64,000 nucleotides of DNA. Origin: Reclinomonas americana ATCC 50394. Its lineage: Eukaryota. Each line of letters begins with the position of its first letter. Positions within the stretch are counted from its first letter, which is position 1. The notes beneath the pieces were generated by a model. It was not told the DNA's origin, did not search any database, and saw only the letters and a program-made list of their open reading frames with translations. Positions 217 through 64,000 of the stretch are shown here, piece by piece. The stretch is from NCBI GenBank assembly GCA_048213135.1, contig PS015213.1:1-64000 (forward strand). Reading direction: 5' to 3'. The position numbers and the translations under genes are program-made.

Positions 217-1690
217 TCAGCAGCAGCCCTTCTTGACCGGGGCGGCCGCGCCGCTGCCACCCGCCGCACCACTGCCCCCGTCGACCGGTGTGTCGAGATT
301 GAGACCGGGACGCATCTCGGCGCCCTCCGACACGTCCTCCTGCTCTCCCGACACTTGAAGTGTCTCCATAATTACAGTAACCAAACTCTGAATGGCCTTG
401 CCGACGTTGAGATTCTGCTTGGCCGACGTCGGGAACCAGCCCACAAAGCCGTGCTCCTCNNNNNNNNNNNNNNNNNNNNNNNNNNNNNNNNNNNNNNNNN
501 NNNNNNNNNNNNNNNNNNNNNNNNNNNNNNNNNNNNNNNNNNNNNNNNNNNNNNNNNNNNNNNNNNNNNNNNNNNNNNNNNNNNNNNNNNNNNNNNNNNN
601 NNNNNNNNNNNNNNNNNNNNNNNNNNNNNNNNNNNNNNNNNNNNNNNNNNNNNNGCAGTAGCGATCCAGCTCCTCTTTTGACTTGCCGACCGCATCATCG
701 AGATCGCACTGCGCCGCCGCCGCAACGCCAAAATTCAACAAAATACAATCGCCATCGCCATCATCATCGACAATCCGCTCACCTTGTTGGCCAGCAACAG
801 ACACGGAATCGGAGCATTGCTGCGATCCGTCAGCCGCACCTTGTCGTCAATGTCCTTTTTCCACTTTTGCACCGCCTCGAAAGTCATCGGCCGTGTCACA
901 TCATAGACGACAATCGCCGCCACTGCATCGCGGTAAAAGACGCGCGTCATGTTGCCGAATCGTTCTTGCCCTGTTCCGCGAAACAAGTGAGTGAACAAAG
1001 TGAAAAGTAACCGCTGCGATACCACTGCGCCACGCACCCGCAATATCCCACAGCTGCAATCGCACCACCGTGCCACCTGGCATCTGCAACATCTTGATCG
1101 CAAAGTCGACACCAATCTGCCCACCCAAAACGCGCCTTGAGCACACACACAGACACGCACAGAGAGACAGAGACAGAAACGCAACAGTCGCTCGGTAGTT
1201 GGACGTGAACACATCGTGCACGTAGCGCTTGATCTACAAATAACAACAATAGCAATCAGAACACGGCACACGTCGCGTTGACCCCCTTCCCACTGACACA
1301 CACTCTCCTTCACACACACACACACACACGCACCAGGCTCGTCTTGCCGCACGCCAAGTCGCCGACGATAATGACCTTGAAGACAAACTCCCGTGAGCGA
1401 CTGCCGCCTCCACCTCCACCGCCACCTCCTGCACTTCCACCACTCGACTGATTCCCGCCTGCAGCAGTGGCACCACCGCCATTGCCACCAGCGCCACCAG
1501 CTTGTGACAAGCCCGCACCACCGTCGCGTTCCTGTGATTGGAAACACACACACACACATAAGAGATAAAAGAGGCAAATGAGAGAAGTGTGTGTGGTGCG
1601 CGCGTGTGTGTGAGAGAGAGAGTGCGTGTGTGTGTGCGAGCGAGAGAGAGAGCAGTAGATTATCCGACAACGCGCGCGCGTCGAACTCAT
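217..1690 (-). CDS. Rab GTPase, Rab32/38/Rab7L1 group (multi-exon)
   Basis: Spliced exons read FKVIIVGDLACGKTSL/IKRYVHDVFTSNYRAT/IGVDFAIK..RLQLWDIAG/QERFGNMTRVFYR..CLLLANK/CDL..FPTSAK and end in the prenylation motif GCC-stop. WDIAGQE is typical of Rab32/38. The first exon (MSSTR, GC donor) is tentative, and the N gap lies inside the gene. Confidence 0.9.
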
Positions 1691-2056
1691 GCATTGTTGT
1701 TGTGTTTGTGATGCGCGTGTTAGTGCATGGAAGGAGCGCAGTGTCTCGCATTCTCTCACTTGCACTCCTCCGTATATTCTTACACAGTGGCGACAGTGTG
1801 TGTGCGCGTGCGTGTGTGTGCGCGTGGGGGTACTCTTGGCCATGACATCTCACAACCAAAAGACGCACACGCACGATGGCACACAGGCTCACGCAGTGAA
1901 CACTCCTCCCCCCACACACCCCGCGCTCTCTCTCTCTCTTTCACAGTGGGCGCACTCACCCGTGATGCCATTCGCGAAGAGAAACACCGGCGATTGGTCC
2001 ATCCAAACTCCAATCACACACTTCTGTTCACTTTGCGTTGTGCGAGAGAGATCACC

Positions 2057-3127
2057 ATGGGTCTCTTGGGCATCACTGCAGATATGGTTCTGGAGGACAT
2101 GTTCCCCGACCTGACTCTCTGGCTGCGCTCACGACGCGCGCAGAACTGGCTGGAGGCCTTTATGTTTGCACCGCGGTGTCAGTCATATGGGCGCGCCAAC
2201 AGCGTGGGAGCTGTCGACTGGCCGGCACTGTGGACTGCGTGCTTGACGGGGGCGCTCATTGGAGTGGTGGGCGCGCTGATGCTGGTGTGGCCACGCGTGA
2301 TGCGCTTCTGCTGTCGCCTGTATCGACGCGGGGAGGAGGACAAGTGGGGTGCGGCGGTGGTGCAGCGAGTGCGTGCGTGGCTGGCCATGGCGCTGCTCTT
2401 CTTTGGGGCCATGAATGTGACGGCTGCGGTGGCGCACTGCATTTTGCGACGATTGGCCATGGAGGCGGAGTTGGGCGACGAGGCGCCGCGACGCCTCTAC
2501 TCGTACTTTCTGTCGGCCGACACTGCGCTCACTAGTGCGTCGTCGTTCTGCTTGGCGGCCGCCGCGTATACGGTGTCGCGTGCGTTGGAGTTGTCGCGTC
2601 CTGCAGGCGCCACCGCGTCTGGTTTGTCGCGTCTTGTCGGCTGGATCACCTCGCCGCCTGTGCTCGGTACGCTGTACTTGGTTGCGGCCATGACCGTGCA
2701 TCGTGTTGGCACGGCATGGCGTGTGGCGTTTGTCTCGGAGGCGCTGTACATTGGCATGACGGTGCTGGCGGCCATGGCGTTGGTGTGGTGGTGCCTGCTG
2801 TCACCGTCGACCCCGCTCAACGCACCGCAGGTGGGCGGTCTGTTGATGGCTACGGTCGGCGCCATTGCCTTTGCCGTCAGTCCCTTCGTCCATGCGGAAC
2901 TGTGCTACCGCTTTGAGGTTCTGTACGGAAACATGTTTGTTCTCGGTGCGTCGTTGTTGTCCGTCGGAAGAAAAGATGAGTAGAGCGAGCGATCTGATGG
3001 TTGTTTGGTTGCCTGCGCAGCATTCTACGGGTGCGACTTTGCGTTCTTGGGCATACTGCTGTACGCGCTCGGCTACACCGTCAACGACACCATGCGGCCT
3101 CTCGACGACGGCAAGAAAGTCGACTGA
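2057..3127 (+). CDS. Uncharacterised multi-pass membrane protein with C-terminal KKxx ER-retrieval motif (2 exons)
   Basis: Long hydrophobic exon, a GT-AG intron at about 2946-3020, and a last exon AFYGCDFAFLGILLYALGY...GKKVD-stop. Confidence 0.7.
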
Positions 3128-3141
3128 GTGAACACAGATTT

Positions 3142-5755
3142 TTACACAGGCATATGCTGTATGCTGCCACTCGTGACATCCACATCGTCGTCGTCGATCA
3201 AGGCCGCCAACCCGTGTCCGCGCTTGACCGACAGCGGATCGGTAAGTCCGGCGCGAGTGTACGCACTGCTCTTCCACGGCGCACCACCGGCTCTGCGGAG
3301 TAATGTCAGTCACTGGACGAGGAGGGGAAGGAGTGAGGAGGAGCGAATTACCGACATCCTCCCTCCCACACGTGCACAAATTTATCCTGCGCAGGAGAGG
3401 TCGTGGTGAGATGCGCGTGGGGGAACACAAGTTGCAAAGCACAGCGCACCATGCCAGCAAAGTGCTGTGTGGACAACAGCAAATGCAAATCAGCACACTG
3501 GAGCAAGTCAAACACAAGGTGTGGAACACGTACCATGTCAAAGTACCGCCGGTACAAGAACTCCTCCTTGCTCTGCGGTGGGTTGAGTGGGAACAGTTCG
3601 GCGGCACGCGCTAACTCTGCATCGTCGACAGCCGTGGCGCAGAACTGCTGTAGCTGTGTCACCCAGTGCACGCCGACACCTTCGCACTGCATCGCCTTGG
3701 TCCTCCACAACACAGTCTCTGGCACGTCACCGCGGAACAGGTCGCGCAGGAACCACTTTTCACACCGATCGACCGTGTGCAGTTTCAATGCAGGGTCCAC
3801 CGAGAACGACACTTGCAGCATGGTCGTATCGAGGAAGGGCACGCGTGCTTCAATGCCGTGCGCCATGCTGTCGCCACAGCAGTGAGACCGTCTGCAAAGG
3901 GGTGCCGGTGACTATTCGGTAAACGTACCTCATGCGATCAGCGCGCTGCAGGTTGACGTTCTTCAGGTGATGAAAGATGCGGCGACACTCGCGTTGCAGT
4001 GACTCTGGTGCGTGCACACGAGTCGATAAGTACCGCGATGAATCACTACCTGACGAGGGGAAAGCAGTCGCACCAGCGTCGGGTGCATCGCGGAAGTACT
4101 GGTAGCCGGCAAACAGTTCATCGGCGCCCTCGCCCGTCAGCACCACCTTGACATGCGCTGCGCAGCAACAATGTCACTCGACAAACGATAGAAGATTGAA
4201 AGGCAAAGACGAAACGTGCAGTCAGTTCCGCCAAAAAGTAACTGCGTCGGCACACGTGCAGTGTCAGCAACACACTGTGGAGAAAACAAAGGATGCAGTC
4301 TGCAGCGACACAACTTGGGAATGGCGCTACGAATCAGTTCCGGCTCATATGTTTCCAGGTGGAACACCGACCGCTCCACGATGCCAAACGCCTGCAATGG
4401 CCCGCCATCTCCAGTTAGAACCGACAACGGATGATGGTGGATGTGTCTTGCTGCATCACCTCTTCTGGCGTGAAAATCCGCTCGTAATGATCCGTGCGCA
4501 AGTGGCGGGCGACCTCGCGCGCTGCCAGAATGTCGGGTGAGTTGGCCATACCCACAGCAAACGACTTGATGCGCTGGTCCGGTCCGACGAGCTTGCGCAT
4601 CAACGCGCCCACGATCGACGAGTCGACACCGCCCGACAGGAACAAGCCGACCTCCACGTCGGCCATGAGTCGCTTCGCCACCGCTGTGAATGACAACACC
4701 ACGTCACTACAATCGCCCCAGCCATCGTGACAAGCAACGATCTCGTGCTTACTTACCCTTCTCCAGCGCTGTCTTCACGGCCTCGCCAGTGGACCAGGCG
4801 GGCGGCAGATAATCGTCGACGTCCCACACCGGCGAAAAGTAGCGCACCAAGCCACCTTCCCGCGTGTAGTAGTAGCCCGCCGGGAACTCCTCAATCACGT
4901 CGCCAGTGTCGTTGCAGAGCTGACAGAGCGACTTGAGCTCCGACGCAAAGGCAATGGAACCGTCGGCTCGCGTGCCCATGTACAGCGGCTTGATGCCACA
5001 CGGATCTGCATACACCTGTGAAAACATCGACAACAAACATGCAGCAGGTCGCCTAAAGTACCGACCTCTGGCGGCCAGCACTCGCTCATCGTCGCCCTCT
5101 ACTAACACGAAGGCAAACATGCCATCGAGCATGGACACACAGTTGACGCCGAATTCCTTGTAGGCGTCTGACCCACACGCAGATCAGTACCACGACTGCG
5201 TCACTGGTACAACACAGAAGTGACGCAACGAATGATGATCTCACTGTCAGACTGCGTGCTGCAGAAAGAAGAGGGCTCCGTGTGTGAGAAGTGACGCGTT
5301 TTTCGCGAGTGCGAGACAACTCGTCGAACGAAACACCAGGTCCGGGGGCGTGCTCAGCCTGTCTCGCAGCGCCACGTGATTGTAGATCTCCCCGTTATGC
5401 ACAACACAGTGTCGGCGCTCGCGATCAAACAGTGGCTGCCGACCCGAGGCCACGTCGACAATCGACAGACGCTGTCGACAGCAACAGTTATTCCGCGCAG
5501 TCAGCAATCACACACACGCAGTGTATGCCTCCCAGACCTCGTGTGCCAACACAAATCGCTCGGTGGCATAGGCGTCGCGTTCATCCGGCCCACGATGCGT
5601 CTGGAGAGCAGAGTGACGTTGTGCGAGAGCGCGCAATTCGTCGGCGCTCATGATGCCGGGTCGCAACCCGAGCAAGGCGAAGATGCCACACCTGAGCACA
5701 CAAATGTGAGACGAGTGGGGTGACACGAGGCGAGGGCGTGATGATGACGGAACAT
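3142..5755 (-). CDS. asnB: Glutamine-hydrolysing asparagine synthetase (multi-exon)
   Basis: MCGIFAL..HRGPD..LAHE/RLSIVD..HNGEIYNH, LDGMFAF, DPCGIKPLY, FASELKSL, LSGGVDSS, VLTGEGADELFAGY, RADRMSMAHGIEARVPFLD. Confidence 0.95.
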
Positions 5756-5843
5756 GTCGGTGCAAACAAAAGATGACAAAGAGGACGAAGGACAAGTGGT
5801 GCGTGCAAAACATGGACATAAGTTTACTCCGCCCCGCGCCGTT

Positions 5844-8800
5844 CTACCGCTCATCACTTATCATGGTCTCGGCCTCGTCTTCCTCCATCTCCACCACCGC
5901 CTGCTTGATTCGTTCTCTGTCTTCCTCCACTTCTTCTTCTCTTTCCTCCTCCTCCTCCTCCTCGCCACCGGACTGCTGATCGATTTCCATCGCCGCCTCG
6001 TCCTCATCTTCCTCCTCCTCAGCTTCCTCAGCCTCCTCTTCTTCCTCCTCCCCCTCCTTGTCCTCCTCCTCTTCTTCGTCTTGCAGCACTGGTTTTGCAG
6101 CAGCAACAGGACGGCGGAAAGCGAAACCATCGAGCTTGGACGCTCCATCGCCACCACCACCACCACCGCTACCGCCCGCAGCCACCGCCCTGGACCGCCC
6201 TGCGGATGATGGTGCAGCGGGCGGGCGTCGCTGTTGAGCTGCGCTCGGCCGTCTCTCTTCCTCGTCTTCGTCCTCATCTTCATCCTCCTCGTCGGCATCA
6301 CGTAGCGCTTCCAGATCGCGCGCCGTATTCTGCATCGACGAGGAGAATGGCGACGACTGCGGCGTCATCATCTGACTGCTGAGCGAAGATGGCGGAGGCG
6401 AGTCCGCCCGCTCGGCTGGCCGGAAACCGAGTGTGGCCTGTCGCTTGGCTGCTGCAGGTGCCTCTGCCGCTCGGTTGGCCCTCGACCGTGACCTCTTTTC
6501 CTTGTCTGTTGTTGCACCACACGACGTGAGAAACTCGCGCGAAAGTTCGTCAGCCCCTGCTCGAACCAGACGTACCACCCGCACCAGCATCCCACCGCAC
6601 GTCGCCTGGTACACCACCGGGAGTCACTGTACACCAACATCAGTGAGAGCCATGACAAACAAGAGGAAGTGATGTGAGCAACAGAACGCAACATGGCAAC
6701 ACCTCCTCCTCGGCGTACAGTAGCGATGACGCGGCAGCCTCGTCGTCGGGCGACACCGCCATCTGGAAGTCGAACTGGTTGTCAAAGGGCCGGAAGATGC
6801 CGAATCTCTGGTCCACGGCAAACGAGCCGACCGACACGGCGAGGCACTCGGCATACACCTGCGGCTGCGAATGTGTTTGGTCGCCGACCAGCAGCTGTGC
6901 ACGAGGTGCGTGTTGTGAGCGACAGTAAATGGCGCGAAACGGAACGGATGGGACGGTGGGAGACGAAACAACGTGGGGTTGCGGATACAGTCGCATGCTG
7001 TGATCGTACTGCCAGTACACGGGCTGGATGTGGAGCGGAAGTGGACACAAGTGCGCTTGTGAAATAATGGTCTTGTACAACTGTACAAAGAAAGGCCCAG
7101 TCAGGGACACCGCCAGCTCGTGCGGCCGTTCACCACGCAAGACGCAACGTGGTCACTCAAATCCAACGACTGGGGCATGCCGACTTCGGTGGACGGCGGA
7201 AGGGCCACATGCCGACGCAGTTTCCTCTGCAAATCATCGCGGAAGACCACCACCTCGCACGTGAACAGGCGCAATCGACACGGGTTGGAGACGAATTCGC
7301 ATTGCGGAACAGCGTCAACCAACTTGCGTGTGAATGTCTGTCTCCTCTTTCGTCAGCAACCATGCATCGTAGGCAAAGGGAAAGAAAGAGCGACGCACCC
7401 GTCCAATTGGAGGTCTCGGCAGCGCCGCTGAGGGCGCCGGATCATTGGGGCCAGGCACAAAGAGGAAGCGTGTGTTGGCCACCACATGCGGGTGCGCCAG
7501 CAGCACGTCGCGCAGTTTGCAGAAATTCGCTTCATACACCGCCCTACACCGCGTGGTGAGTGCGCCTGACAAACGCACATGAACTTCGTCACCACACACC
7601 GATCATCAAAGTGCGATCCGAATCGCCACGACAGGAAACTGCCCATGAACAGAAAGGCCAGTGGCATATCCTCGGCTGCGTCCTCGTCGTACGCCGACAG
7701 AATGAAATTGATCTTGTCCAGCACCTGCCGCGCATGAAAACAAAGGCGGAAGGATGAGCAGAAGTGCAGTTGAATGTGTAGTATGCGCGCGTGCGACTTG
7801 CCGTGGGATTGTCGAGAAACACGTCGCTCAACACCACCATGTGTGCATCCGGTTGCCGCTCCTGCTCTCGTCGCATGATACGCATGTCGCTGTCTACACA
7901 ACGCGATCCGAAAAAGTTGACAGAGGCATGCGCTGCTAGTGACTTGACACGCGTCTCGGTCGTCGGCAACGTCAGGCTGTTCACTTCAAAGACGCCATTC
8001 TCGAATTGACCCTGTGTTCCCCGCAACGAATGAGTGGGATGCCATGTGAAGGCTTGTCGACACGCAAAAGCAGCAGCACCTGCGCAATGACCACCGAGCT
8101 TTCGGTAAACAGTCCGCTGGCCAGCGATCGGTGAGCACACGAGTCAAGGCACACACACACACACATGCATTGCAGCAAACACAGACAGAGACAAAATGGC
8201 AATGCAAAAGGATATCAGCTTGTCAAAGTTGAGTCGCACTTGAGCGTTTTGGTCCTCCAAGTACCACATGCCGTCGGAGCCCATGAACAACGCACCGGCC
8301 ACATGACACTCGCCCTCGGCACCCAACAGACTCTCCACATTCATCAACTGGACGAAGACTCTCAGCACACAAACATCACGAGAGAGAGAGAGAGTATGTG
8401 CGTGGGTGGGGAGACAACAGCAACGCGACGCAACTTCGGTCGTGCGCGCCTTGCTGTTGGGCGTCACAATCGGCATTGCGGCAAACATAGGATGCCGCAA
8501 CTGCCGCTGATACACCACCATGTAGCGCTCTCGGAGACACCTCGACTTGTCGTCGGCATTGCCAAACAACGATAGAGGTCCCTCCACACTGTGGCGAGTC
8601 AGCACCGTGCACGAAAGAAAGAGAGAGAGTCGCGGCAGCCGCACGCAACGCCAAGAATGACCGCCGCGACACATTGTATTCGTACTTGGGCACGTCAAAC
8701 GCAGAGATCACTTCCACGGGAGTGGCTGCCGCACTCAACCCCTGTTGCATTCGCCACTTGTCAGCATGATGCACACGCATGCACACAAACACGAACAGAG

Positions 8801-9977: not shown

Positions 9978-12900
9978 ATGGGCGGCTGCTGTAGCTCACG
10001 CACGGTGCAGCCGACCGACTCGAGCATGTTGCATCCCAACACGCTGAATGCGCTGCAACAAGGCAGCGGCGACTCACCATCCGAGGACAACCCAGGTGGG
10101 AGTAGTCTCGCTTCTCCTCCTTCTCCTCTTTCCTTGTGTTGGCGTGCGGTGACTGACAGCGCGCGCGCACGCGTGCACACACACGCACAGTGTCGGTGAG
10201 CACGCAGGAGCGACGACGACCGCGACTGGATCTGCTGAGCGTGTTCGGCATCGGACCCAACGGGCGCTTGTCGACCTCCCCGCTGAGCTGCGACAGTGAC
10301 AAGCTGAACGCCTCGTTCGGCGCACTGCACGCGTCGCTGATGGTGGAGGATAGCTGCGACGGTGCCGACGATTGCGGCGGCAAGTTGGTGACAGCCGTCA
10401 CGCCGACGCGTGTCGGAAGTCGACTGTCACCGACCACCAGCCGCGAGCATCTCCTGCCCATGTGCTGCCGCAGCTGGAACAGCCGGGAGGAGGAGGAGTG
10501 CTGGCGGAGGGAACGTGACCGTCGGCGATCGTTGCTGACGGAGGGTGGCCTCGATCCGAGTTGCGATTCAGTCACACTTCATGACACGCTACGAGGCCAC
10601 GTGCTAACCTGTGGCTGCGTCGACAGGCATTCTCGATCTGATCGAGTGGCCCATGGAGGCCCATGCGGTGTACTTGACCAGCGAGCGTGCTCTGGCACTC
10701 ATGCAACAGTCGTATGCGCGCTACTCTGCCGAGGTATGTTGTTGTGCAGCCGTGTGTCAAGCAGAGAGGAAGAATGTGCTCCGTGTTGATCGATGCTCGT
10801 ACAGCGTGGCCTGCGTCCGAGCTCATGCCTAATGGAGCTTGCTGTCACTCTGCAGCAAGGTCAGGAGTGCTCCGTCGTTCTACATGCCGTCAGTTTTCAC
10901 TAACGATCTTGGCCGCAGATATGCGCAAGGTGTTTTCGAGCATTCGCCTCTGTTGCGTTGCACTGCCGTGGAGTCTTCGTGGCGCATACACGCAACTCAC
11001 CTCTCTCGCGATGTGCAGATCCACCAGCGCCAGCCGTGGTTGAGAAGACAGTGGAGAGTTTCGTGGAGCGGTGCTCGGATCCGAACGAGCCCCTCGGTTG
11101 TTGCTTCTCACACACCCTCGTTGCGTATAACAGCGACCGTCTCCGACGCCACCGCCTTTGTGTCGCAAGACATGTACACTGAGTTGGCACAGTGTGTCAT
11201 GTTCTTCACGGCCGTGACAGGTACGTTCACGGCTGCGATATTGCATGCAGCACATATGCATGGGGCTCACTTGCTCGTCGAGTAGGAATCGTGCACAATC
11301 CGAGTAAGGAGGCGGTCATGCCGGCGGCGGAGCAAAAGTGCGTCACGTAGCCGGCGCACACTTGTGGGACTCCGCATCGTCCGACTTACATGCCAATGCA
11401 GAGTCCGCATGCTCCTGGCGCTTCTGACCCTCGCCGAATCGGAGACGCTGACCGAGGCATTGCGTCTGCTGAGCATTGTCACTGCTGACTGTTGCGCACT
11501 ATCGTCACTCTGCTGTCGTCGCCACAATACTCATCGACGCGTGCAGCTTCGATGAGGAGTCTCTTCCTGTCGGCCAATGGTCTGCAGGCGATTCTTCCGC
11601 TTCTCCAACGACTGCCGATGGACCGAGAAACGATTGCGCACGCCGCGCAGTGCATTCGTGTGACGGCCAGCGACGGTAGGCACTCGTCTCACGTTGTACG
11701 TACGTATCCATGAGCTCATTCGAGTCCTTCCCTGCGTCACAGACGATGGCAAGGTCGCTGTGGCCGAGCAAGCAGTGGCCAAGGCCCTTGCCGGCGCACT
11801 GCAGCTGCACGCAAAGGAGGGCTACGCTGTGTCGACACTGGCAGGAGCGATTGCGACAGTCACCGAGTGGGGTGCGCTGGGCATGTTGTCTCTCTTTGTT
11901 GCAGAGCTGCATCTCACTCTCGCTTGTCGGGCGCAGAGGAAAACCGTCGCCAATTCGCCGCCAGCAATGGGTTGCGCGGACTCGTGGAAACCATCCGCAT
12001 TCACATGGGCGACACGCGTGTACTGCGCGAACTCTGCATGGCTACAACCACCGCGATTGCAAACGGTGTGTGACGCATGCATGTGATGTTGATGGTTGCA
12101 ACTCACTTCTTTCGAAATGGGCAGACGAGAACGAGAGGCTGTTTGGGATCTGCGGCGGAATTCAGGTTCAATTATGTGTGCAGGAGAAACACAGCTACGC
12201 CTCGCGAATTTAACACCGTCGGCTGCAGGTCCTTGTCGACGTTTTCCGCAATCACCATGCAGACGCAAGCATGGTGGAGGAGGCGTGTTGGGTGCTCAAG
12301 AATGCCACCGCCAATTGTACGTGTAGTGGTGATCGCGCTTTCTGCTACTTTGCTGCAGATAGTGGCTCACGAGAGAGAGGCACAGCGGCGGAGAACCAGC
12401 TGCAGGTGGCACAGTTTGGTGGCATTCCGCTGCTGGTTGGTGTGCTACAGGAGCACATTGCCTGCGAGCATGTGATGGAGCAGGCCTGCTGGGTTGCGTA
12501 CATAGTGATGTGTGCCTTCTGTTCTTGCACACGCTCCTGTGCTTACTCTTTGTGCAATCTAGGCTATTCGTAATGTGACGGCAAGCGGTGAGTGTGTTCA
12601 AAGAGTTGTTCTGCGTGTCCGTTAACTGCATCTATTCACGCATGCCACAGAGGCCTGCCGCAAAGCGTTTGGACACTCCAATGGCGTCTCGTATCTGTTG
12701 CAAGTGCTCGACCGCTACGTGGGCTCCGATGCCGTCGTCGAGCAGTGTTGCTGGGCCATCACCAATGTCACGACGAGTGGTGAGCAGCTTTGTGTTTCAC
12801 TTTTCAACAGAGTAAGTTCAACCGATTCACTTGGGTTGTGTGTGTGCAGAGGAGAATCAACACGCCTTCGGCCAGTACGATGGCGTGCGACTGCTGGTGC

Positions 12901-15220: not shown

Positions 15221-16564
15221 TCAAAGCTTGGCCTTCAGTGCGAGGTCGGGCATGGTCAGCAGCTCGCCATCATCTGCATTCGCGTGTCACACGGACGAGG
15301 CAAGCGAGTTTGTGACGGAATCCAAAAAGGAACGCAACATTGAGTGTTGGTCATGGCGTGCAGCGGCTCGCGGCACTCGAGGTGCATGTGAGCCCAGCGG
15401 ATGGCCGTCCAGCCGTCACTTCGCAGGCCCGTGTTCACAAAGCGCGCCAACAGCAGGGCGGCGGTGTACACGTACGCAATGCGGAAGGCAAAGTCACGGG
15501 CCATTGGCTCCACCGCATGCGCCTTGTTGGCCGCCAGCGACGTGCCAATGGTTTCGCCCATGCGCCGGAGAGTGTCGCACGCGGCCTTCACCAAACTCAC
15601 AATCTCCTCGCGCCATCCGTTCTGCTCGGCCGACAGTCCTGCAACACCATCTCGCAGTGAGTCAGCCACCACCCACACATGCCTTACAAAGTCTCCACTG
15701 CTCGTGGAGACGCACCACTGCGCGGACGCTCACGGCACTTGTCCTCGACCTCTTGCAACAGGCAAATGAAACTCTTCGGCTCGTGAGTCAGCACGCGGAA
15801 CACGTCGAGCGACAGAATGTTCGTGGTGCCTGAGAACAGCAAGTCAGCACGCTTCCTATCGCTCGCTTACACACACGTCCAATCCATCACAACACCTTCC
15901 CAAATCGGCGTCACTTGGGCATTCCGCAGAAGCGCCGGAATGCCCGTGTCCTCAATGTACGCTGTGTGGGATGGAATGAGATCGACACGTACACACTCTC
16001 TCTTTCTCCCCACCCTCATTCTCACTCACCCTGTCCACCAATGGCCTCAATGCCCTCACTTGTCAGCCACACGCACTGCTTGCCCGTGTACAGCTTGAGC
16101 ACCGGCGTGAGGAGGCGAAGAAGCGTGTTGCTCTTGGCCTCGTCTGCACGATAAACGGAAAGAAATGATAAGCATTCTTGCAACACCACGTGTGGCCTCC
16201 GCCGTCGCAACTGGGGGAGCACTCGGTGCGGCCCATGTGCCAGACGATATTGAAAGTGAACTCGGTGCAACCTGCATCACACACATACATGAGCAGGCGT
16301 CGAACGAGGAACTGATTCGAAAGCACTGCACAGACACACACCGCGCGTCTCCACCTCCATGTCGGCCAGCGTGCGCACGTGCAGCGGGTGGTCGACGAGG
16401 GCACGGCGGAACGAGGTGCGCGTGTAAGCGTAGCGAGTGGCATACATGGTCGCGCGACGCATGTACGACAGCGACGACACCGAGTTGTACAGGCGAGTGA
16501 CATTGATCATGTTGGCAATGGTGGCCACACCTGATCTCGTCCCACGGTGAGTGATCCGCATTCG

Positions 16565-16627
<63 letters not shown>

Positions 16628-16853
16628 CACACACACACACACCGACCGGCCGGTTCGTCGTGTCGTACACGACGACGCGCGCGCGTCGTCGTCGTGTAGA
16701 CGACGCGTCGTCGGTCGTCGGACCGACCACCGTCGTCGCCGNNNNNNNNNNNNNNNNNNNNTACGTACGTAACGTCGGGGACGACCACCTACGTCGCGTC
16801 CCACGTCGTAGGTCGAGTACGACACTTCGTAAACGTACGAACCACCGACACAA

Positions 16854-16916
<63 letters not shown>

Positions 16917-18976
16917 CACACACACACACACCGCGACCGGGCTTGCTGATCAGCAGCGCACGGCTGCCGTTGAGTGACAGCTCGGCTGTCGGCAACCCAC
17001 GTGTGCCCAGCTTGTTCTTCAGACGCTGAATCTGAATGTTGTTGAGAGAGCCATCGTCACGGCGCACGCGCACGAAGAACAACGACAGTCCGCGACTCCC
17101 CTACGGGACGGAAAGAAGTGAGGCACACCCAGAGCAAGAAAATAATCCGATGACGCAGTCACTCACGGGCATCTCCTCGCCGTTGGCGTCAACAATGCGT
17201 GCCAGCGTCATGGTCAGGTCGGCGTCCGTGGCCGACGTGAACCACTTGAAGCCGTACAGACGATACGATCCATCTTCTTGCGGCACTGCGTATGTCTGTG
17301 TGTACCCGACATCGGAGCCGCCGGGGCGCTCCGTCATCTGTGTGCGACTGTGATAAGCGCCGAGGCAGTGTGCACGACACAGTGCACATGTTTGCACGCA
17401 ACCCACTGGCCCGAGGTCCAGAACTCGGACGGAGAGCGGCTTGTAAGGTGCTTGTAGGCCTTTTGCAGTTCGGCACGAGTTGACGGCAGTAGCGACAGCG
17501 AGTCTGCACGACCACCACAAGTCAGTGGAGTCGGTTCTGCTCAGCATCACCTCGTAACGTACCCGGTGCCGAGGCCAGCAACGTCTCAATCAGTCGCGCG
17601 GCACCGTCGGTCATGGCCAGCGGACACGTGTAAATGGCAGAGCTGGCGGTGAACATGTACAGCTGCGCAGACGCCCACTGGTGAGGGGCATGTACAGTTG
17701 ACGACCAGCAATGGTGAGAAGCACCTTGGCGAACTGGTGCAGTCGACTCAGGGCCTTGTGCTTGCGCTCGTAGCCAATGGCCACCACACCCTCAGTGGCG
17801 GAGAAATCATGCAGCTTGGTCCACGCCGGCGTCGTCACAATGTGATCGATGCGCCTGCAGTCGCATCAGAAACAAACACCAGCGACGCCCACATCGAGTG
17901 ATTACGAAACTTGCCCCACGGCGTAAACTGCTTCATGTACGGCTCGTTCTCCTCTGCCTCGCGATTCCAGCTCTCCACTGCCGAATACACACACATGACG
18001 ATGTGAAATGGAGAGTAGGGGGTCACGGTGTGGCACACACACACACACACCTGGATCCACCAACTGGCGGCCGAATGACGACAGATCGGCATCGATCTCG
18101 GCAAAGTCTCGAGCGTTGCCAATCATCAACTGCTTGAGCGTGTCACGCAGGTAGGTGTCACCCTCGTACAAGTTGTGTGGCAGTGACGGCTCCCGTTGCA
18201 AGAAGAAGAGATCCGAGTCGCGTGGATCGCGCACCAACACCACTTGCACCGAATGCACCACATTAGTGATACTACTCGGTTCCCCCATCGTCATCTCGGT
18301 GGCCGGCTCCACTGACAGCTTGCTGGCCGACGTCTGCACCCTCAACGACACTGCGCAACCAGCGATCAGCAACAACAACAACGAGAGATGCAAGAAGAGC
18401 GCGCGCGCACGCACACAAACCATGATCACTGCTGCTAGCACCGGACGCCCGAGAGGCCACGGCCGACGCCGGGCCGCACCAACCAAAGTAGAAGGCACTC
18501 TCCGCCTCGCCCGTTGTCTCTTCACGCACCGAACGAATCGTCGCATCACCCTGCTGCGCGTCAAATTCCACCACACACGTCTCGCCACTGCGCACCGCGC
18601 GTGCACGGCCCACAGCCACCACTCTCGCACGCGCACCACCATCCACCACGCGCACCAAAAACTGCGCAGAGTCGTCGTCAGCAAAGCACAATGATTCACT
18701 CGCTGCCGATTCGCACACACATACACACACAGACCGGGGTGATGACGCTGGACGAGGAGGCGCCAACAAAGGCCCAGCGAGTGACACGTGCAGGTGCACG
18801 CCCGCCAGCCGCGAGATTCACCGGCAGCATGTGCACCACTGACTGAGTGGCACTTCCCGCCGATGCACTGGTGCCACTGACGAGCGCATTGCCGACCACT
18901 GACGAGAGAATGAGTGAGTGAGAGTGTGAGGTGTGCCAGTGCGTCTCCATGCGTCCCACGCACCACGCTCAGTCAT
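15221..18976 (-). CDS. AidB/ACDH-11-like acyl-CoA dehydrogenase with extra N-terminal domain and PTS1 (AKL)
   Basis: CPLAMTDGAA, WTSGQW/MTERPGGSDV, LYGFKWFTSATD, RLKNKLGTRGLPTAEL, KLYTGK, IGGQ/YIED, VTPIWEG/TTNILSLD. The last exon ends LKAKL-stop. Confidence 0.9.
16566..16930. repeat. (CA)n microsatellite inside an ACAD intron, interrupted by low-quality sequence and a gap
   Basis: Long CA runs at about 16566-16641 and 16855-16930. Confidence 0.85.
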
Positions 18977-20628: not shown

Positions 20629-20660
<32 letters not shown>

Positions 20661-26700: not shown

Positions 26701-27911
26701 TAGCCGATGCGATATGTGGATGTGTGACTGTCGTGCGCAGGTGGATCCACGCTCGATTATACAGAACGAACCGCGCTACATCGCCTTCTTTGTCAACTTG
26801 TACAATCTGCTTGTTGCGTTTCACTCTATCAGCCACCAGCCCCGTGCTTCGCTGATAACGGGTTCTTCCTCACTCTCGCGTGCAGATGTTGCACGGTATA
26901 TTACTGCACGGGTATCCCAAGCGAGGATCGGCACGCAAAACATTCTTTGCCAACACCAAGTACAAGGTCGGCGAGTTTGTTCTGTCACTAGACGACATTC
27001 AGCATGGCATTTTGCGAGGTGGGTTGTCGGTTCAATCTCCTGCGGCCTTTTGTTGCTGTGCTCTCATTCTCGTGTGACAGGTGACCGCAACCGTCCTCAT
27101 GGAATGGGCAAGACGTACTTTTCCAAGCGCGACAAGGCTCGCGAGCTGCGCCTGCGGAATCCCAGTCCACTGCTCGTCTGTTGTCTGTCCACCTGCTCGG
27201 TGTCGAGTCCTGCCGTGTCCATCCTCAGGTAGATCAGCGAGCCAAGCCAATCCCACCCCGTTTGACAGTGCTCAACTAACTCTCCTTCCATCATCACGCA
27301 GATGGGACACCTACGACGTGTCGTTCCGCCGCGTGTGCTCCGAATTCATCGCCAAGGATGCGATTCTGGATCAGGAACGCCGCCTCGTTTCGTGTGAGAT
27401 GAAAGAATTGCGTGTCATATGCGAGTCTCGCCACTCATGCCTGTTTTGCAGGTCACCTTGCCGGCAGTGTTTTCGACCTATCGCGGTGACTTTGGCGGCA
27501 GCGACATTGAACTGCTGCGCAAGCTGTTGCCGTACATGACGCTGGCGCAGTCGATTGCGCTGCAGAATGCTCTGGACAGACATCTGATCGAGCAGAACAA
27601 GTTCAAGGTGCAGTATGCGAGCTACGACTGGGACCCGTGCGTGCGGTACGATCGAACTGCGTTTGATTTCAACCTCAGTTGCGTTTTTGCCACCCCATCG
27701 CCAGCTGCATTTCAGTGTTCCTCATGAGATACGTACGCTCCGCGCGCGCGCAGTGCAAACTGCAAGTGGGGCAAGCGGCTCCGGAAGCTCCCCTGGAAGC
27801 GGCGAGGGTGACGCTGATGAGGCAAGCGGCAGCCACCCCGACGTCCACGCCATTGTGAAGAGCTTTGGCGCGGTGCGCGACGGCACCAGACCACCGAGCA
27901 ATCGCAAGTGA
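20711..27911 (+). CDS. DENN-domain protein (putative Rab GEF) with GRAM-like and C-terminal DUF547-like domains
   Basis: ALLLERHVAVVSK..LIYPFRWVNPYMPLLP..SPVPVFMG (cDENN); FYVEFVSTMMFDDW (dDENN); GRLVFTNQRVLF (GRAM-like); IAFFVNLYN..SLDDIQHGILRG..LPAVFSTYRGDFG..YDW (DUF547-like). The start could be Met at 20840. Confidence 0.82.
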
Positions 27912-42718: not shown

Positions 42719-43184
42719 TTCCCCCTCTCCTTCTCCTTTGTTATATGNNNNNNNNNNNNNNNNNNNNNNNNNNNNNNNNNNNNNNNNNNNNNNNNNNNNN
42801 NNNNNNNNNNNNNNNNNNNNNNNNNNNNNNNNNNNNNNNNNNNNNNNNNNNNNNNNNNNNNNNNNNNNNNNNNNNNNNNNNNNNNNNNNNNNNNNNNNNN
42901 NNNNNNNNNNNNNNNNNNNNNNNNNNNNNNNNNNNNNNNNNNNNNNNNNNNNNNNNNNNNNNNNNNNNNNNNNNNNNNNNNNNNNNNNNNNNNNNNNNNN
43001 NNNNNNNNNNNNNNNNNNNNNNNNNNNNNNNNNNNNNNNNNNNNNNNNNNNNNNNNNNNNNNNNNNNNNNNNNNNNNNNNNNNNNNNNNNNNNNNNNNNN
43101 NNNNNNNNNNNNNNNNNNNNNNNNNNNNNNNNNNNNNNNNNNNNNNNNNNNNNNNNNNNNNNNNNNNNNNNNNNNNNNNNNNNN

Positions 43185-43414: not shown

Positions 43415-44566
43415 TAAAGAGTACACTTTCTGACTTTTTTCTTATCTCCACTGTACCCGACACACACACACACACGGTCGCTCTCGCGTCACGCGTGCAA
43501 CAAGACGGGCAAAACAAAGGAGAACATATGTACAGGATGGGTGAACAACACAACAATGGCGAAAGATCTAGAGCACGGCTGTACAAGAAAGACAAATTGA
43601 TTCTTCTAAGAGGGGGAGAAAACAGCGACAACAANNNNNNNNNNNNNNNNNNNNNNNNNNNNNNNNNNNNNNNNNNNNNNNNNNNNNNNNNNNNNNNNNN
43701 NNNNNNNNNNNNNNNNNNNNNNNNNNNNNNNNNNNNNNNNNNNNNNNNNNNNNNNNNNNNNNNNNNNNNNNNNNNNNNNNNNNNNNNNNNNNNNNNNNNN
43801 NNNNNNNNNNNNNNNNNNNNNNNNNNNNNNNNNNNNNNNNNNNNNNNNNNNNNNNNNNNNNNNNNNNNNNNNNNNNNNNNNNNNNNNNNNNNNNNNNNNN
43901 NNNNNNNNNNNNNNNNNNNNNNNNNNNNNNNNNNNNNNNNNNNNNNNNNNNNNNNNNNNNNNNNNNNNNNNNNNNNNNNNNNNNNNNNNNNNNNNNNNNN
44001 NNNNNNNNNNNNNNNNNNNNNNNNNNNNNNNNNNNNNNNNNNNNNNNNNNNNNNNNNNNNNNNNNNNNNNNNNNNNNNNNNNNNNNNNNNNNNNNNNNNN
44101 NNNNNNNNNNNNNNNNNNNNNNNNNNNNNNNNNNNNNNNNNNNNNNNNNNNNNNNNNNNNNNNNNNNNNNNNNNNNNNNNNNNNNNNNNNNNNNNNNNNN
44201 NNNNNNNNNNNNNNNNNNNNNNNNNNNNNNNNNNNNNNNNNNNNNNNNNNNNNNNNNNNNNNNNNNNNNNNNNNNNNNNNNNNNNNNNNNNNNNNNNNNN
44301 NNNNNNNNNNNNNNNNNNNNNNNNNNNNNNNNNNNNNNNNNNNNNNNNNNNNNNNNNNNNNNNNNNNNNNNNNNNNNNNNNNNNNNNNNNNNNNNNNNNN
44401 NNNNNNNNNNNNNNNNNNNNNNNNNNNNNNNNNNNNNNNNNNNNNNNNNNNNNNNNNNNNNNNNNNNNNNNNNNNNNNNNNNNNNNNNNNNNNNNNNNNN
44501 NNNNNNNNNNNNNNNNNNNNNNNNNNNNNNNNNNNNNNNNNNNNNNNNNNNNNNNNNNNNNNNNNN

Positions 44567-56949: not shown

Positions 56950-58502
56950 ATGTCGGCATCAGCAGCTGCAGCCGCCACCTCGTCCTCCTCATGGACACCA
57001 GAGACCACGCTGCGCGAGGCTGGCGGTGAGACACTGCCTGATTACCTTCTCACCTCCTCACTGACCAATCGCGACTGCTGCAGAGCGCCCGCTGATCGAG
57101 CGCCTGCAACAGATCATTGGCGAATCTGCAGGCTGCGGAGGCATGTGGGGCTCGCCACTCGTGCCGGGACCCGACGATGTGGTGGGAATGCCGCTGGCGA
57201 TGCGTTCGACGACGACTGTCTCCGTCGGAGAATCAAGTGCGCCACTTGTCGGCTCGCCACCACCGCTGCCACCGGCTCCGCTCTTTGTCAACACCGACAT
57301 GCTGGTGTGGTCCACCGATGTGCCACCACTGCCTCGCGGCATGAGCTCTCGCCAGGCGGCGCGCAAGGCGATTGTCAGCGCCTGCAGTGATCTGATTGTC
57401 AAGGGCGTGCAGCCGCAGGCCTTGGTCACCTCGTTGGCGCTGCCGTCCACGATGATGGTGGCGGACTTTGACGAGGTCTGTCGGGGACTCGTCGACGGCT
57501 GCATCGAACTGGAGGTGTGCTACCTCGGTGGTGACATTAACGAGTGCGCCTCCGACAAGATCATCTCGGTGACCGCGTGGGGTCAGGCCGAGACGTACAT
57601 TCCGCGCCGCGGTGCACGCGTCGGCGATGTGATCTTCACCAGTGGCATGTACGGGCGGTGAGTGCGTGGCGGGCGGCGGCGAGATCCTCCTTTCTCACTC
57701 GTGCATGCAGCGAGAGCATCGGCTTGACCTTCATGCTGGACCGCGAACCGGACTTGGCAGTGGACGAGTTGCGCCTGCGATCGCCATTGCAGTAGAGAGG
57801 GAGGCAGATTGGGGAAGAGTGCTAACTCGAGGGGTGCATGTGTTCACAGGTCACTGGAGGAGTGCTGCGATGCCATTCGGAATCCGACGGTGGAGCGAGA
57901 CATTGGGCCAGCCATGGCGCGTCTCGGCGTCGCCTCGGCATCGTGTGACACCTCCGATGGCCTGTTGCGTACGCTGAACGACATGTGTGCGGCGGCAGCG
58001 TCGCATGGCGAGGCACCACTGTCGGCGGAGCTGCGTGCCTCGGCGATTCCAGTTGCGTGATCATGCCGATTCTGTTGCTTGAGCTCCTTTGTCTCTCTCT
58101 CTCACTCACCGACACCAACGTGGCAGATCCATCCGGCCGCTCGCAAAGTACGACACGATGATCCGCGTCGCCTGCTCATCGATGCGCTGCTTGGTGGCGA
58201 AGAGGTATCAACCAATCGAGTTGTCACGTCTCGTTCCGATTTTTGTTGTCGGGCCTCTTACCGCACCCTCCCAGTTCAATCAAGTGTTTGCCGTGCCGGC
58301 CGACCAAGTGCCACTAGTGCGCTCAACATTTGGCGATCGCCTCACGGAGATTGGCGTGTTCGTGGACGGCGAGAAGCACGACGGGCTGCTGATTGCCGAC
58401 GATGGCGAAGCAGTGTCACTCAAGCAATTCGGACTCGGCTTTGCGCACTTCACCGGCGCCGACGTGATCGACGAGGGCACTAAAGCATATACTCAAACTT
58501 GA
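56950..58502 (+). CDS. thiL: Thiamine-monophosphate kinase (ThiL, PurM-like family), 6 exons
   Basis: G/ERPLIE, DD, NTDMLVWSTDVP, SDLIVKGVQP, LGGD, RRGARVGDVIFTSG, DTSDGL, GGEE/F, IG, GFAHF. Five GT-AG introns restore one frame. Confidence 0.85.
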
Positions 58503-58749
58503 AGAGACCCAGCGCCTNNNNNNNNNNNNNNNNNNNNNNNNNNNNNNNNNNNNNNNNNNNNNNNNNNNNNNNNNNNNNNNNNNNNNNNNNNNNNNNNNNN
58601 NNNNNNNNNNNNNNNNNNNNNNNNNNNNNNNNNNNNNNNNNNNNNNNNNNNNNNNNNNNNNNNNNNNNNNNNNNNNNNNNNNNNNNNNNNNNNNNNNNNN
58701 NNNNNNNNNNNNNNNNNNNNNNNNNNNNNNNNNNNNNNNNNNNNNNNNA

Positions 58750-61700: not shown

Positions 61701-62432
61701 TCCTCCTCTTCCTCATCCTCCTCATCTTCCTCCTCGTCGTCGTCGTCGTCATCGTCGTCTTCTTCTTCCTCATCCTCGTCTTCCTCTTCCTCATCATCAT
61801 CGCTGTCCTCATCACTGTCTTCTTCCTCTTCCTCCTCGTCGTCGTCATCATCATCATCGTCCTCCTTCCGACTCCTCTTCTTCTTCTTCAACCGCATGGC
61901 GCCCGTCGGCGACCGCTGCTGTCGATGCGCCCCTCGCCGATGCAGCGACGAAGCCGTTGCCGCGGCGGCCGCCACCAACCGCTTACTCTGCTGCCTCTCC
62001 AACGCCCCTCGCTCCGCCTTGACATCGGCCACCGAGCGCAGATACGCAATCGTCTGCATTTGCCCCCCGTCCAACATCTCCAGCACCGCCGACAGCTCCA
62101 AGTTGGGAAGCACATGATGATACAACTAACGCACGCACGCACACATGAGCGCACACAGGCATGTCTTCTCCTGCGTGCGCACGCACACTCTCACGCACCG
62201 CAGCAATGGCCTCGCGAAGCTCACTCTCAAAGGTGGGGTCGCTGCTTGCCTGTTTGTTGGGCGCCGGGTACTGGTATGCTGCCACTATGGTGCCACGCAC
62301 GGACGAGGTGCTGCCTGACTGCTGCTGCTGTTGCTGCTGCTCACTCGCAGGCAGCGTGTGTCGCAGTGACGCGAGTTCCATGACGCAGTGAGAATGGTGG
62401 GAGGAATCAAAGGGATCCACGGTCTGCTTCAA
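58750..62432 (-). CDS. GCN5-related (GNAT) acetyltransferase-like protein with acidic insert and coiled coil; ends uncertain because of gaps
   Basis: LQITLVGVRLKYQYARLGSHLL (motif A-like) and TYADVTSLNFWRRNGF (like GCN5 YAD..F.K.GF); D/E tract at about 61690-61860. Confidence 0.6.
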
Positions 62433-62868
62433 TGAACGACAAACCGCGGGCCTTACCTGTCTGCTCTTTCCTCAGTCGCGCACTCGCTACTGTCTCTTCC
62501 CTTGCCTCAGTGTGTTGTTCTTGTCCTGGAGTTGCTCCGAAACCCCCTTCCTCTGGTGAGCACACACTCATACATGCACAGTCTCAGACAGCAGCGCGTT
62601 GTCGCTGCACACACTCACTCTCTGCCTCTGTCTCTGTGATCGCTGTGTGTGTGTCTGTGTCTGATTACGCGCGCAGAGAGACGCATGGCATCAACAGGTT
62701 CGTTGGCAATTGGTTTCATTTAAAGTGCTCACACTCTTCTCACTCACACGCTCCTTCTCTGTGCTCTCCAGCAGAGGACGATCAGCTGCTGTGCGCGCGA
62801 GAGACCGAACTGGTTTCGTCAACACACACACACGCTCTCTCTCTCCCTCTCTCCCTCACAATACACTG

Positions 62869-64000
62869 ATGTCTATTTTCTCGTCATCATCACAGGAGCG
62901 GCAAGTGGATGCATTAGCCGACCTGTTTGTCACCAACACCGACTTCCCCGCCACGCAAGTCGCTCTCCAGCAGTTTGCCCGACCAGTGCGTCCACTCGGC
63001 GATCCACTCTTGTCTCTCACTCACATCGGTTGGTGCAGACGGAGGGCAGCAGCGGTGGCGATGCGGGCGATGCCGAGGCCGAGTTTGCGCAGTTGTATCA
63101 CGAGGGCGATGCGGTGACTGTGGGTCGCGATCATCGACTTGCCCGTGTTCTCTTTGTCGGTCACACGCAGTTTGCGGCGGGCATGTGGCTCGGGGTGGCC
63201 ACGGCGGAGCGTGATGTGTTGACCAGCAAGCGCACCCCGCACCAGCACGACGGTGAGGTGGACGGTGTGCGGTACTTTGCGTGTCCACCAGGGCACGGAG
63301 CCTTTGTGAAACCGTCGTCGGTGGCGCTTCTGTGGGCCGATGTTGCGTGTATGTGCGCCCGATCGTTTGGGGCAATGAGTCGCTGAACGACTGTGCGTGC
63401 GTGCACACAGAACTCCAAGCGCGACTTTTGGGGCCTGTACCACGCGCACGCGCGCCTTTCGCTGGCGCTGCTGCAGCGCACGGTGGCGGCATTGGGTATG
63501 TCGGACGCCGATGGATCTCATGTGCGCGAAGGCTGGCGGCGCGAGATGAGATTTCGTGTGCGTGAGTTGACATCGTTGTTGGAGTTTGCCGCCGACCTCA
63601 TCAGCATCGGCGAGCTGGAGGCACTCACGCACCTGCTGGAGCCGTTTGTGCCCGCTGCCATGAGTGCCAAGTGTGCCGAGGCCCTGGAGAAGCGCGAGGA
63701 GCTGAACGAGGCTGTGATTGACATTGCGGCGACACATGCACAATTGTCGTCGCCAACTCGCTTCGTCAACAAGGTACGCGTGCACCGACGCCATGCATGC
63801 CAGTTGTGGATGTCCTTCCATTCACACACGTGCGTGTTGCGTCGTCTGCAGTTCGACTCCGAGTTTGACACGATGCGCCTGCTGTACGCCGAGCGCGGAA
63901 TTGTGCGACACGAGCAGTACCTCGCGCCGCCGCTGAGCAGCAGCCGATCGTCACTCTCTCCCCCGACCTCCAAGGATGGATCGCCGATCGCGTCAACTCC
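62869..64000 (+). CDS. CAP-Gly domain protein (truncated by window end)
   Basis: VLFVGHTQFAAGMWLGV..HDGEVDGVRYFACPPGHGAFVKP. Confidence 0.85.

Follow-up and report, generated by a model that had tools for sequence, protein, structure and literature searches.

A 64-kb stretch of nuclear DNA from the eukaryote Reclinomonas americana ATCC 50394 (the whole stretch analyzed, referred to here as the window) contains introns with two kinds of 5′ splice site. In addition to ordinary GTRNG donors, a second discrete donor class, GTT[G/T]CGT, exists and is found at intron boundaries fixed by protein homology. Judged from the DNA, GTTGCGT-type sequences instead of the usual GTGNGT type stand at the beginning of about one fifth to two fifths of the introns, and these appear to be genuine U2-type GT-AG introns of the ordinary spliceosome. 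The best reading of the motif, to which we assign a probability of roughly 45%, is that the U1 register is shifted by one base at these sites; both this register and the identity of the reader are what we infer from the donor and exon sequences. The class is accordingly called the shifted class below.

The window is gene-dense, with about 58% G+C and many short introns per gene, and intron boundaries in it were placed from the reading frame, the GT-AG rule and homologous proteins. Genes were modeled with a Viterbi exon/intron finder self-trained on the window. The finder learned models of coding sequence, intron content, acceptor and length, and its only donor rule was GT, so that donor positions +3 onward were not learned (donor-agnostic models). 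The same finder supplied with a first-order donor model gave a second set (donor-trained models). The two sets hold 248 and 223 predicted introns, respectively, and the median predicted intron is about 68 nucleotides (nt) long. Six runs of N totaling 2285 bases (460–654, 16742–16761, 42748–43184, 43635–44566, 58518–58748 and 59112–59581) break several genes, account for the apparently low G+C content of the 40–44 kb region and gave rise to at least one false exon in the models (16641–16788).

GTTGCGT is the commonest donor heptamer in the donor-agnostic models, where it begins 25 of 248 introns (10%) and an independent-position donor model expects 0.68. It begins 28 of the 223 introns in the donor-trained set, in which position +3 is G in 102 donors, T in 82, A in 24 and C in 15. 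Both strands of the window together hold 44 copies of the heptamer, compared to 15.9 ± 3.9 in 100 dinucleotide-preserving shuffles (maximum 26; none of the 100 reaches 44) and 14.1 expected from a second-order Markov model. The motif thus exceeds both the independent-position expectation and the compositional background, the two yardsticks that an initial annotation of this DNA had set in advance for its proposal of such a donor class. The sense strand of predicted genes holds 41 of the 44 copies: 25 are predicted donors, nine lie inside sense introns and seven in sense exons, leaving three that are antisense. Among other GT sites the heptamer accounts for 7 of 2719 in sense exons (0.26%), 9 of 1754 in intron interiors (0.51%) and 3 of 3629 on the antisense strand (0.08%). 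The shifted class as a whole makes up 19–23% of predicted introns, and GTT donors make up 14 of the 34 homology-fixed ones. All 19 sites listed in the initial annotation carry GTTGCG on the strand given there (17 as GTTGCGT, with GTTGCGA at 10560 and GTTGCGC at 57768). As intron starts, 14 of them are predicted by the donor-agnostic and 16 by the donor-trained models, and 40826 is supported by none. The listed donor at 8434 is missed by both sets of models but preferred by the homology test described below.

The composition of the donors shows that the class is discrete. By type, the donor-agnostic donors comprise 46 GTTNCG, 88 GTRNG, 21 GTTNG and 92 others, many of which are probably false calls. 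Donors with G at +3 (n = 109) have G at +5 in 76 cases and T at +6 in 53, while those with T at +3 (n = 83) have G at +4 in 47, C at +5 in 53, G at +6 in 51 and T at +7 in 47. The G, C, G and T at +4 to +7 of the shifted class mirror positions +3 to +6 of GTGCGT, and the conserved G-T falls at +6/+7, where it had been placed by the initial annotation. Among GTT..G donors, 46 of 51 have C at position +5 and 2 of 51 have A. Ordinary donors at the equivalent position, +4, have C in 35 cases, T in 27, A in 22 and G in 4, and because the +5 C is far stricter than this, the class is not simply any ordinary donor with an added T.

The two classes also differ on the exon side. An exonic G at –1 precedes 6 of 46 GTTNCG donors but 58 of 88 GTRNG donors in the donor-agnostic set (p = 2.6e-9), and 2 of 14 GTT-class donors but 19 of 20 ordinary donors in the homology-fixed set (p = 2e-6), which bears out the earlier observation that most shifted donors lack this G and that the class anticorrelates with it. 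GTTTG donors behave differently: –1 is G in 11 of 11 and –2 is A in 7 of 11. Because of the invariant –1G these are normal-register sites, weak on the intron side and propped up by the exon, and the suggestion that GTTTGTG donors represent a two-base shift is not supported. They follow the compensation logic seen in this window, in which donors that are weak on the intron side are all backed by an exon-side AG. GTTTGCG donors are rare (2 of 248).

Boundaries were fixed independently of the finder's donor choice by comparison with homologous proteins. Homologues were fetched with single exons of four genes: a PGM2-like gene, an asparagine synthetase, an ACAD11/AidB-like dehydrogenase and a gene that we take to encode a DNA polymerase epsilon subunit B-like protein. 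For each junction, all in-frame donor/acceptor pairs within ±15 nt were enumerated with no dinucleotide rule (about 300 variants per junction), and the variant peptides were scored with a hidden Markov model (HMM) built from the homologues only. A junction passed when its GT-AG pair was the top GT-AG pair, scored at least 15 bits and lay no more than 2.5 bits below the best variant; 31507 is counted as a pass, the better-scoring variant there having the same donor. Of 47 junctions scored (three more had no usable variants), 34 pass, and 14 of these start with GTT: nine GTTGCG[T/A], four GTTTCGT and one GTTGTGT (Table 1). At each of the 14 the GT-AG pair ranks first or joint first among about 300 variants, and the predicted proteins align with homologues without gaps across the GTT-donor junctions. 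At two junctions homology corrected the finder, both times toward a GTT donor (8424 to 8434, GTTGCGT, and 4311 to 4314, GTTGTGT). Single-base resolution is reached at 17402, where the top score among 313 variants (143.4) belongs to only one GT-AG pair and its sequence-equivalent GG-CA pair. A +1/+1 shift there turns an invariant M into V and scores 139.9, and the best other GT-AG pair scores 132.6. The 13 of 47 junctions that fail lie mostly in variable or uncovered regions of the proteins and include the GTT donors 31331, 9185, 9022, 7323 and 6692 as well as ordinary donors. Identity of the homologues to the window exons tops out at 75–80%, and no close relative was found in metagenome contigs with a 136-residue asparagine synthetase exon as the query (80 loci kept, best identity 46%). 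In the armadillo-repeat gene, removal of a GTTGCGT intron rebuilds a motif that another of the protein's repeats carries without interruption (EQCCWAITNVTT).

Table 1. Shifted-class donors, the genes scored for them and copies of the heptamer near 3′ splice sites in the window (a slash in the donor column marks the exon/intron boundary; scores are HMM bits).
Feature	Donor	Gene	Position	Strand	Evidence
Gene, 13 predicted introns		PGM2-like	30298..33020	-	11 of 13 junctions pass; 3 of those GTTGCG
Gene		ACAD11/AidB-like	15221..18976	-	8 of 11 scored junctions pass, 3 of them with GTT donors
GTTGCGT donor, 65-nt intron	TGG/GTTGCGTG	ACAD11/AidB-like	17396..17402	-	FWTSGQW / MTERPGGSDVG, gap-free against 9 homologues
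GTTGCGT donor, 64-nt intron 1	TTG/GTTGCGTG	PGM2-like	32962..32968	-	Gap-free WLAL/DRDPDTR; sole GT-AG pair among 317 variants, top score
GTTGCGT donor, 62-nt intron	CAA/GTTGCGTG	PGM2-like	30886..30892	-	Gap-free MYR/KYGYFH; 75.3 (best), next GT-AG 60.7
GTTGCGA donor	GAA/GTTGCGAG	PGM2-like	31501..31507	-	Both top GT-AG variants (72.8, 69.6) use it; acceptor differs by 3 nt
GTTGCGT donor, 62-nt intron	TTC/GTTGCGTC	Asparagine synthetase	5223..5229	-	Gap-free SDSEIII/HAYKEFG; 54.8 (best of 315), next GT-AG 45.1
GTTGTGT donor	CAA/GTTGTGTC	Asparagine synthetase	4308..4314	-	47.1 (best) vs 38.9 for the finder's 4311; restores IPN/YFLA as in homologues
GTTTCGT donor	CAC/GTTTCGTC	Asparagine synthetase	4209..4215	-	Gap-free; 61.3 vs best 62.8, next GT-AG 46.3
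GTTTCGT donor	GGT/GTTTCGTT	Asparagine synthetase	5328..5334	-	47.4 vs best 48.8, next GT-AG 38.6; variable region, weaker support
GTTTCGT donor	CAA/GTTTCGTA	ACAD11-like	17904..17910	-	Gap-free FTPWG/KRIDHIV; 88.6 vs best 88.7, next GT-AG 68.8
GTTGCGA donor	CCA/GTTGCGAC	ACAD11-like	16205..16211	-	57.8 vs best 58.0, next GT-AG 47.4
GTTGCGT donor	GGC/GTTGCGTG	DNA polymerase epsilon subunit B-like	8643..8649	-	63.4 vs best 65.7, next GT-AG 50.6
GTTGCGT donor	GAA/GTTGCGTC	DNA polymerase epsilon subunit B-like	8428..8434	-	72.0 vs 62.9 for the models' 8424; best variant 72.3
GTTGCGT donor	CAC/GTTGCGTC	DNA polymerase epsilon subunit B-like	7142..7148	-	95.6 vs best 96.5, next GT-AG 90.2
GTTTCGT donor	GTT/GTTTCGTC	DNA polymerase epsilon subunit B-like	6963..6969	-	101.0 vs best 101.1, next GT-AG 96.5
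GTTGCGT donor, 73-nt intron	CTT/GTTGCGTT	DENN/DUF547	26813..26819	+	Pfam DUF547 profile positions 20/21 across the intron
GTTGCGT donor	TGG/GTTGCGTA	Armadillo-repeat	12493..12499	+	Rebuilds EQACW/AIRNVTAS; predicted by both models
GTTGCGT donor, 69-nt intron	ACT/GTTGCGTT	Rab-like GTPase	1179..1185	-	Predicted by donor-agnostic model; gene dropped from donor-trained set
GTTGCGT donor, 67-nt intron			10952..10958	+	Predicted only, both models
GTTGCGT donor			15332..15338	-	Predicted only, both models; C-terminal protein region highly variable
GTTGCGT donor after CAP-Gly exon, 69-nt intron			63342..63348	+	Predicted only, both models
GTTGCGT donor, 75-nt intron			58052..58058	+	Predicted only, both models
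Intron-interior GTTGCGT near 3′ splice site			11120-11126	+	
Intron-interior GTTGCGT near 3′ splice site			32679-32685	-	
Intron-interior GTTGCGT near 3′ splice site			36873-36879	-	
Intron-interior GTTGCGT near 3′ splice site			63836-63842	+	

Apart from the donor, introns with T at +3 resemble the ordinary introns around them. Median length is 68 nt in the +3T class and 69 nt in the ordinary class. A CTNAY motif occurs within the last 60 nt of 58 of 81 and 90 of 125 introns, respectively, with a median distance from the branch-like A to the 3′ splice site of 19 in both, and C is found at –3 of the acceptor in 73 of 81 and 103 of 125, the CAG acceptor being common to both. Donor positions +8 to +12 are flat in the shifted class. 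An all-against-all blastn comparison of the predicted introns gave 843 hits, only five of them between shifted-class introns; most of the 843 reflect (GT)n runs in other introns. Given the same length, branch motif and acceptor and no other shared sequence, the shifted introns are best regarded as ordinary U2-type GT-AG introns. An origin from introner elements was rejected, the shifted introns having no similarity to one another beyond the donor motif. U12-type introns are recognized by an RTATCCTT donor and a TCCTTAAC branch site, neither of which is present here. They too provide a second donor class beside the major one in the same genes, but in the window both classes share the CTNAY branch motif, its spacing and the acceptor; a minor-spliceosome origin was rejected on the GTT[G/T]CGT donor and on a 3′ region that is the same as in ordinary introns.

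In the shifted-register reading, the motif GUU[G/U]CGU would be an ordinary U1 site, AG/GUGCGU, in which the first intron G has been replaced by U. The only usable GU would then lie one base upstream, as in A/G-U-UGCGU. A U1-type small nuclear RNA (snRNA) would bind in the same place relative to UGCGU as it does at ordinary donors, its C9 would pair with intron G+1 instead of exon G–1, and the catalytic core would cut at the GU. With G+1 in place of exon G–1, the exon G–1 would be dispensable in the shifted class. The near-invariant C at +5 suggests a G opposite it in the reading RNA, which would make the 5′ end of this U1 unlike the standard ACUUAC. Sequence on the exon side is consistent with the shift that the initial annotation had offered among its possibilities: in the homology-fixed set, position –1 of the shifted class (A6 C4 G2 T2) resembles position –2 of the ordinary class (A10 C6 T3 G1), and sliding the exon positions by one improves their fit to the ordinary profile (log-likelihood +28), with most of the gain coming from the missing –1G.

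Several observations weigh against a simple shift. In the predicted set the mirroring is absent, A being found at –1 of 8 of 25 GTTGCGT donors and at –2 of 1 of 17 GTGCGT donors. The standard U1 5′ end is of the ACUUACCUG type, and its predicted duplexes with the shifted class average –1.4 kcal/mol compared to –2.9 kcal/mol for decoy GT sites (area under the curve, AUC, 0.30), whereas ordinary donors reach –6.3 kcal/mol (AUC 0.85). Co-folding with AUACUUACCUG pairs G+1 to C9 in 4 of 46 shifted donors and to C8 in 5 of 46, leaving it unpaired in 28 of 46. Position +5 is rarely A, although A would pair with standard U1. The position of the cut is itself deduced, the +1/+1 alternative being excluded at some junctions only, such as 17402, and every intron candidate originates from one self-made gene finder. 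Because the strict +5 C is the opposite of what standard U1 prefers, the shifted-register mechanism needs an extra assumption about U1, and because standard U1 is predicted to pair even less well with the shifted class than with GT sites taken at random, a U1 that is altered or a second one stays a candidate.

Such a reader, in line with the variant U1 or U6 snRNA that the initial annotation had also raised, is the strongest competitor of the shifted register, though we consider it unlikely on balance. A second U1, or a single U1 with one extra base, would have a 5′ end containing ACGCAAC, which pairs perfectly with GUUGCGU, and there would be two cognate donor codes within the major spliceosome. 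The shifted class acts like the strongest kind of intron-side site, needing no exon AG where weak donors do, and each of positions +4 to +7 (G, C, G and U) is under constraint, with A at +5 almost absent. As noted above, standard U1 is predicted to be unable to tell shifted sites from decoys, while a hypothetical ACGCAACCUG end gives an AUC of 0.84 for shifted and 0.76 for ordinary donors; this end is the complement of the motif, however, so that the fit is partly circular. Changed U1 5′ ends have precedents in Entamoeba (AACAAAC) and Mastigamoeba (ACGUAC), and Physarum appears to carry a standard and a modified U1 (bioRxiv 10.1101/2022.06.08.495308). On the other hand, ordinary donors are already well accounted for by the standard U1 end and do not call for a single altered U1, no U1 5′ end with an inserted base is on record in the literature examined, and conservation of the motif does not extend to +8 onward. 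A scan of the window with Rfam models found no snRNA gene at the gathering score; at E ≤ 1 it returned only two weak and irrelevant matches, to mir-598 and an EBV sisRNA model.

It is less probable again that U1 pairing plays no part in reading the motif, which would instead be recognized by a protein or later by U6 or U5, or would be a mutational or compositional habit of short, intron-defined introns. Very short introns (median 68 nt) favor intron definition, the predicted pairing with standard U1 is very poor, and a few introns have a copy of GTTGCGT shortly before their 3′ splice site as well. Yet the motif is 20 to 125 times commoner at donors than at other GT sites, and both its position-specific constraint and its anticorrelation with –1G follow the compensation between exon and intron sides that is usual for U1 pairing. 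By our reasoning the pairing positions of the U6 ACAGAGA box, as given in bioRxiv 10.1101/2022.06.08.495308, also offer no match to the +5 C.

Bulged pairing, another possibility raised by the initial annotation, fares slightly worse. Here standard U1 would pair G+1 with C8 and U+2 with A7, U+3 would be flipped out and GCGU would pair like +3 to +6 of GUGCGU. A bulge at +3 (or +2) has been validated for human sites (PMC4856993), and removal of the T gives GTGCGT, which is a common ordinary donor in the window (17–22 copies). A bulge would keep the preference for –1G, however, because C9 stays free to pair with it, and –1G is found in 13–14% of shifted donors as opposed to 66–95% of ordinary ones. 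It also predicts that GTTGAGT and GTTGTGT match GTGAGT and GTGTGT in frequency, while C occupies +5 instead, and the duplex energy is poor, with the G+1:C8 pair formed in only a few of the co-folds. The two pairing schemes of the initial annotation part company, the shift fitting the exon side and the bulge failing there, and predicted pairing with standard U1 is worse than for decoys.

That the class is an artefact, with boundaries misplaced by the gene models or an extra T introduced by assembly error, is very improbable: although all candidate introns come from a home-made finder, their boundaries draw only on frame, the GT-AG rule and homology, and 13 of 47 junctions fail the homology test, the donor-agnostic model used no donor information beyond GT, homologue HMMs fix 14 GTT donors against about 300 alternative boundaries each and twice moved the finder's boundary to a GTT donor, and an assembly error would be neither strand-specific (41 vs 3 copies) nor linked to an absent –1G.

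Shifted and bulged registers of the 5′ splice site/U1 duplex have been proven for rare human sites (Roca & Krainer 2009 and Roca et al. 2012, as cited in Tan et al. 2016, PMC4856993), and validated non-canonical registers are estimated to account for 1.5% of human sites (PMC4856993). In the human shifted register all U1 pairs move by one, as in the example oligonucleotide given there with AAGUAU at +4 to +9. The Reclinomonas class is similar in that the conserved G-U lies one base deeper in the intron and the cut, as placed by homology, stays at the GU. It differs in its abundance (19–23% of predicted and 14 of 34 homology-fixed introns), in being one sharply defined sequence with C at +5, and in its pairing: the human examples described in that source keep long complementarity to standard U1, whereas here the predicted pairing is worse than for decoys, although the organism's own U1 may differ.

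Lineage-specific donors matched by a changed U1 are described for Entamoeba (donor GUUUGUU, U1 AACAAAC) and Mastigamoeba (donor GUGCGC, U1 ACGUAC), while Thecamonas and the Mamiellales prefer C at +4 with a standard U1 (bioRxiv 10.1101/2022.06.08.495308). The Entamoeba and Mastigamoeba donors recall those in the window in having U at +3 or C at +4, and they show that the U1 5′ end can evolve. As described there, however, one consensus replaces the standard one, +5 G is kept and the register is normal, whereas in the window individual genes use both donor classes, with the second displaced by one base. The same preprint states in passing that Physarum polycephalum has both standard and modified (ACAUAC) U1 candidates, which is a precedent for a single organism with two kinds of U1 5′ end; the passage does not mention any donor class with an offset. 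The 5′ splice site classes defined by LUC7 likewise trade exon-side (–1G) against intron-side matches but, as far as they are described, share one register and the standard consensus, unlike the shifted class. A diplonemid-type donor was rejected as a match, the diplonemid donor being given as (G)/GTATG (PMC12621601). Among the papers listed by string and topic searches of the open-access literature, none describes a GTTGCGT-type donor class.

The ordinary donors and the 3′ regions of the introns have features of their own. GTAAGT, the universal optimum donor, is nearly absent from the window (1 of 247 predicted donors, at 4756 on the minus strand). Together with the pyrimidine-rich +4 position, this scarcity hints that the U1 base facing +4 may differ from the standard, as reported for Mastigamoeba. 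Some 15–17 predicted donors start with GTGTGTG and continue as (GT)n tracts (for example, 18050, 16929, 16640 and 16341 on the minus strand and 19863 on the plus strand); these calls may be partly false, and 31931, 18050 and 16341 pass the homology test. At the other end, the stretch from CTNAY to the acceptor is G/T-rich and without a pyrimidine tract in all predicted introns (for example, 10560–10626 on the plus strand), and the acceptor is (C)GCAG-like (of 125 introns, 70 have G at –4 and 61 have C at –5).

Four of the nine GTTGCGT copies in intron interiors lie 12–16 nt upstream of the 3′ splice site (Table 1), one of them in a homology-fixed PGM2 intron. The shorter TGCGT appears to be most frequent 10–14 nt before the acceptor, where 11 of its 57 interior copies in short introns fall. 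Both patterns may have arisen by chance or belong to the 3′ region rich in G and T. The GTTGCGT intron at 10952–11018 on the plus strand contains an exact complement of its donor, ACGCAAC, 38 nt downstream and directly before a CTCAC branch-like motif. It is possible that this donor folds back on its complement, but such folding is not general, because sense introns contain only two ACGCAAC complements.

The genes checked in the window are the PGM2-like, asparagine synthetase and ACAD11/AidB-like genes (named from their hits and Pfam labels) together with DUF547 and WD40 genes, the WD40 gene adjoining the DENN/DUF547 gene. From their translations we take others to encode a Rab-like GTPase and armadillo-repeat, SNF5-like, guanylate kinase, La-domain, MORN+RING, PIG-L-like and CAP-Gly proteins as well as a 2OG-oxygenase-like pair, in addition to the DNA polymerase epsilon subunit B-like protein. 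In the asparagine synthetase gene, the predicted 152-nt intron at 3442–3291 on the minus strand probably hides a small exon with the conserved VWEGGCR that is present in all homologues, and the last predicted intron (3177) is probably spurious.

Few RNA-RNA contacts in eukaryotes are as conserved as the one through which the U1 5′ end recognizes the donor. To our knowledge, donors read off register are known only as rare human exceptions, and a sharply defined and abundant off-register class appears to be new among the open-access literature searched. Gene-prediction software trained on GTRNGT donors will get a large share of this organism's exons wrong, a risk made concrete by the two GTT sites at which homology corrected even a donor-agnostic finder. 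If the less likely alternative of a two-code major spliceosome is true, in which a U1 with an inserted base (ACGCAAC-like) would act beside a standard-type U1 or as the only U1, a fifth to two fifths of the introns would be defined by a seven-base GUUGCGU that standard U1 cannot read, and R. americana would be a natural example, across a whole genome, of one spliceosome with orthogonal donor recognition. The organism may serve as a natural system for learning what sets the cut site where the register of U1 does not agree with the GU, and whether the 5′ end of U1 can gain a base or duplicate into two specificities.

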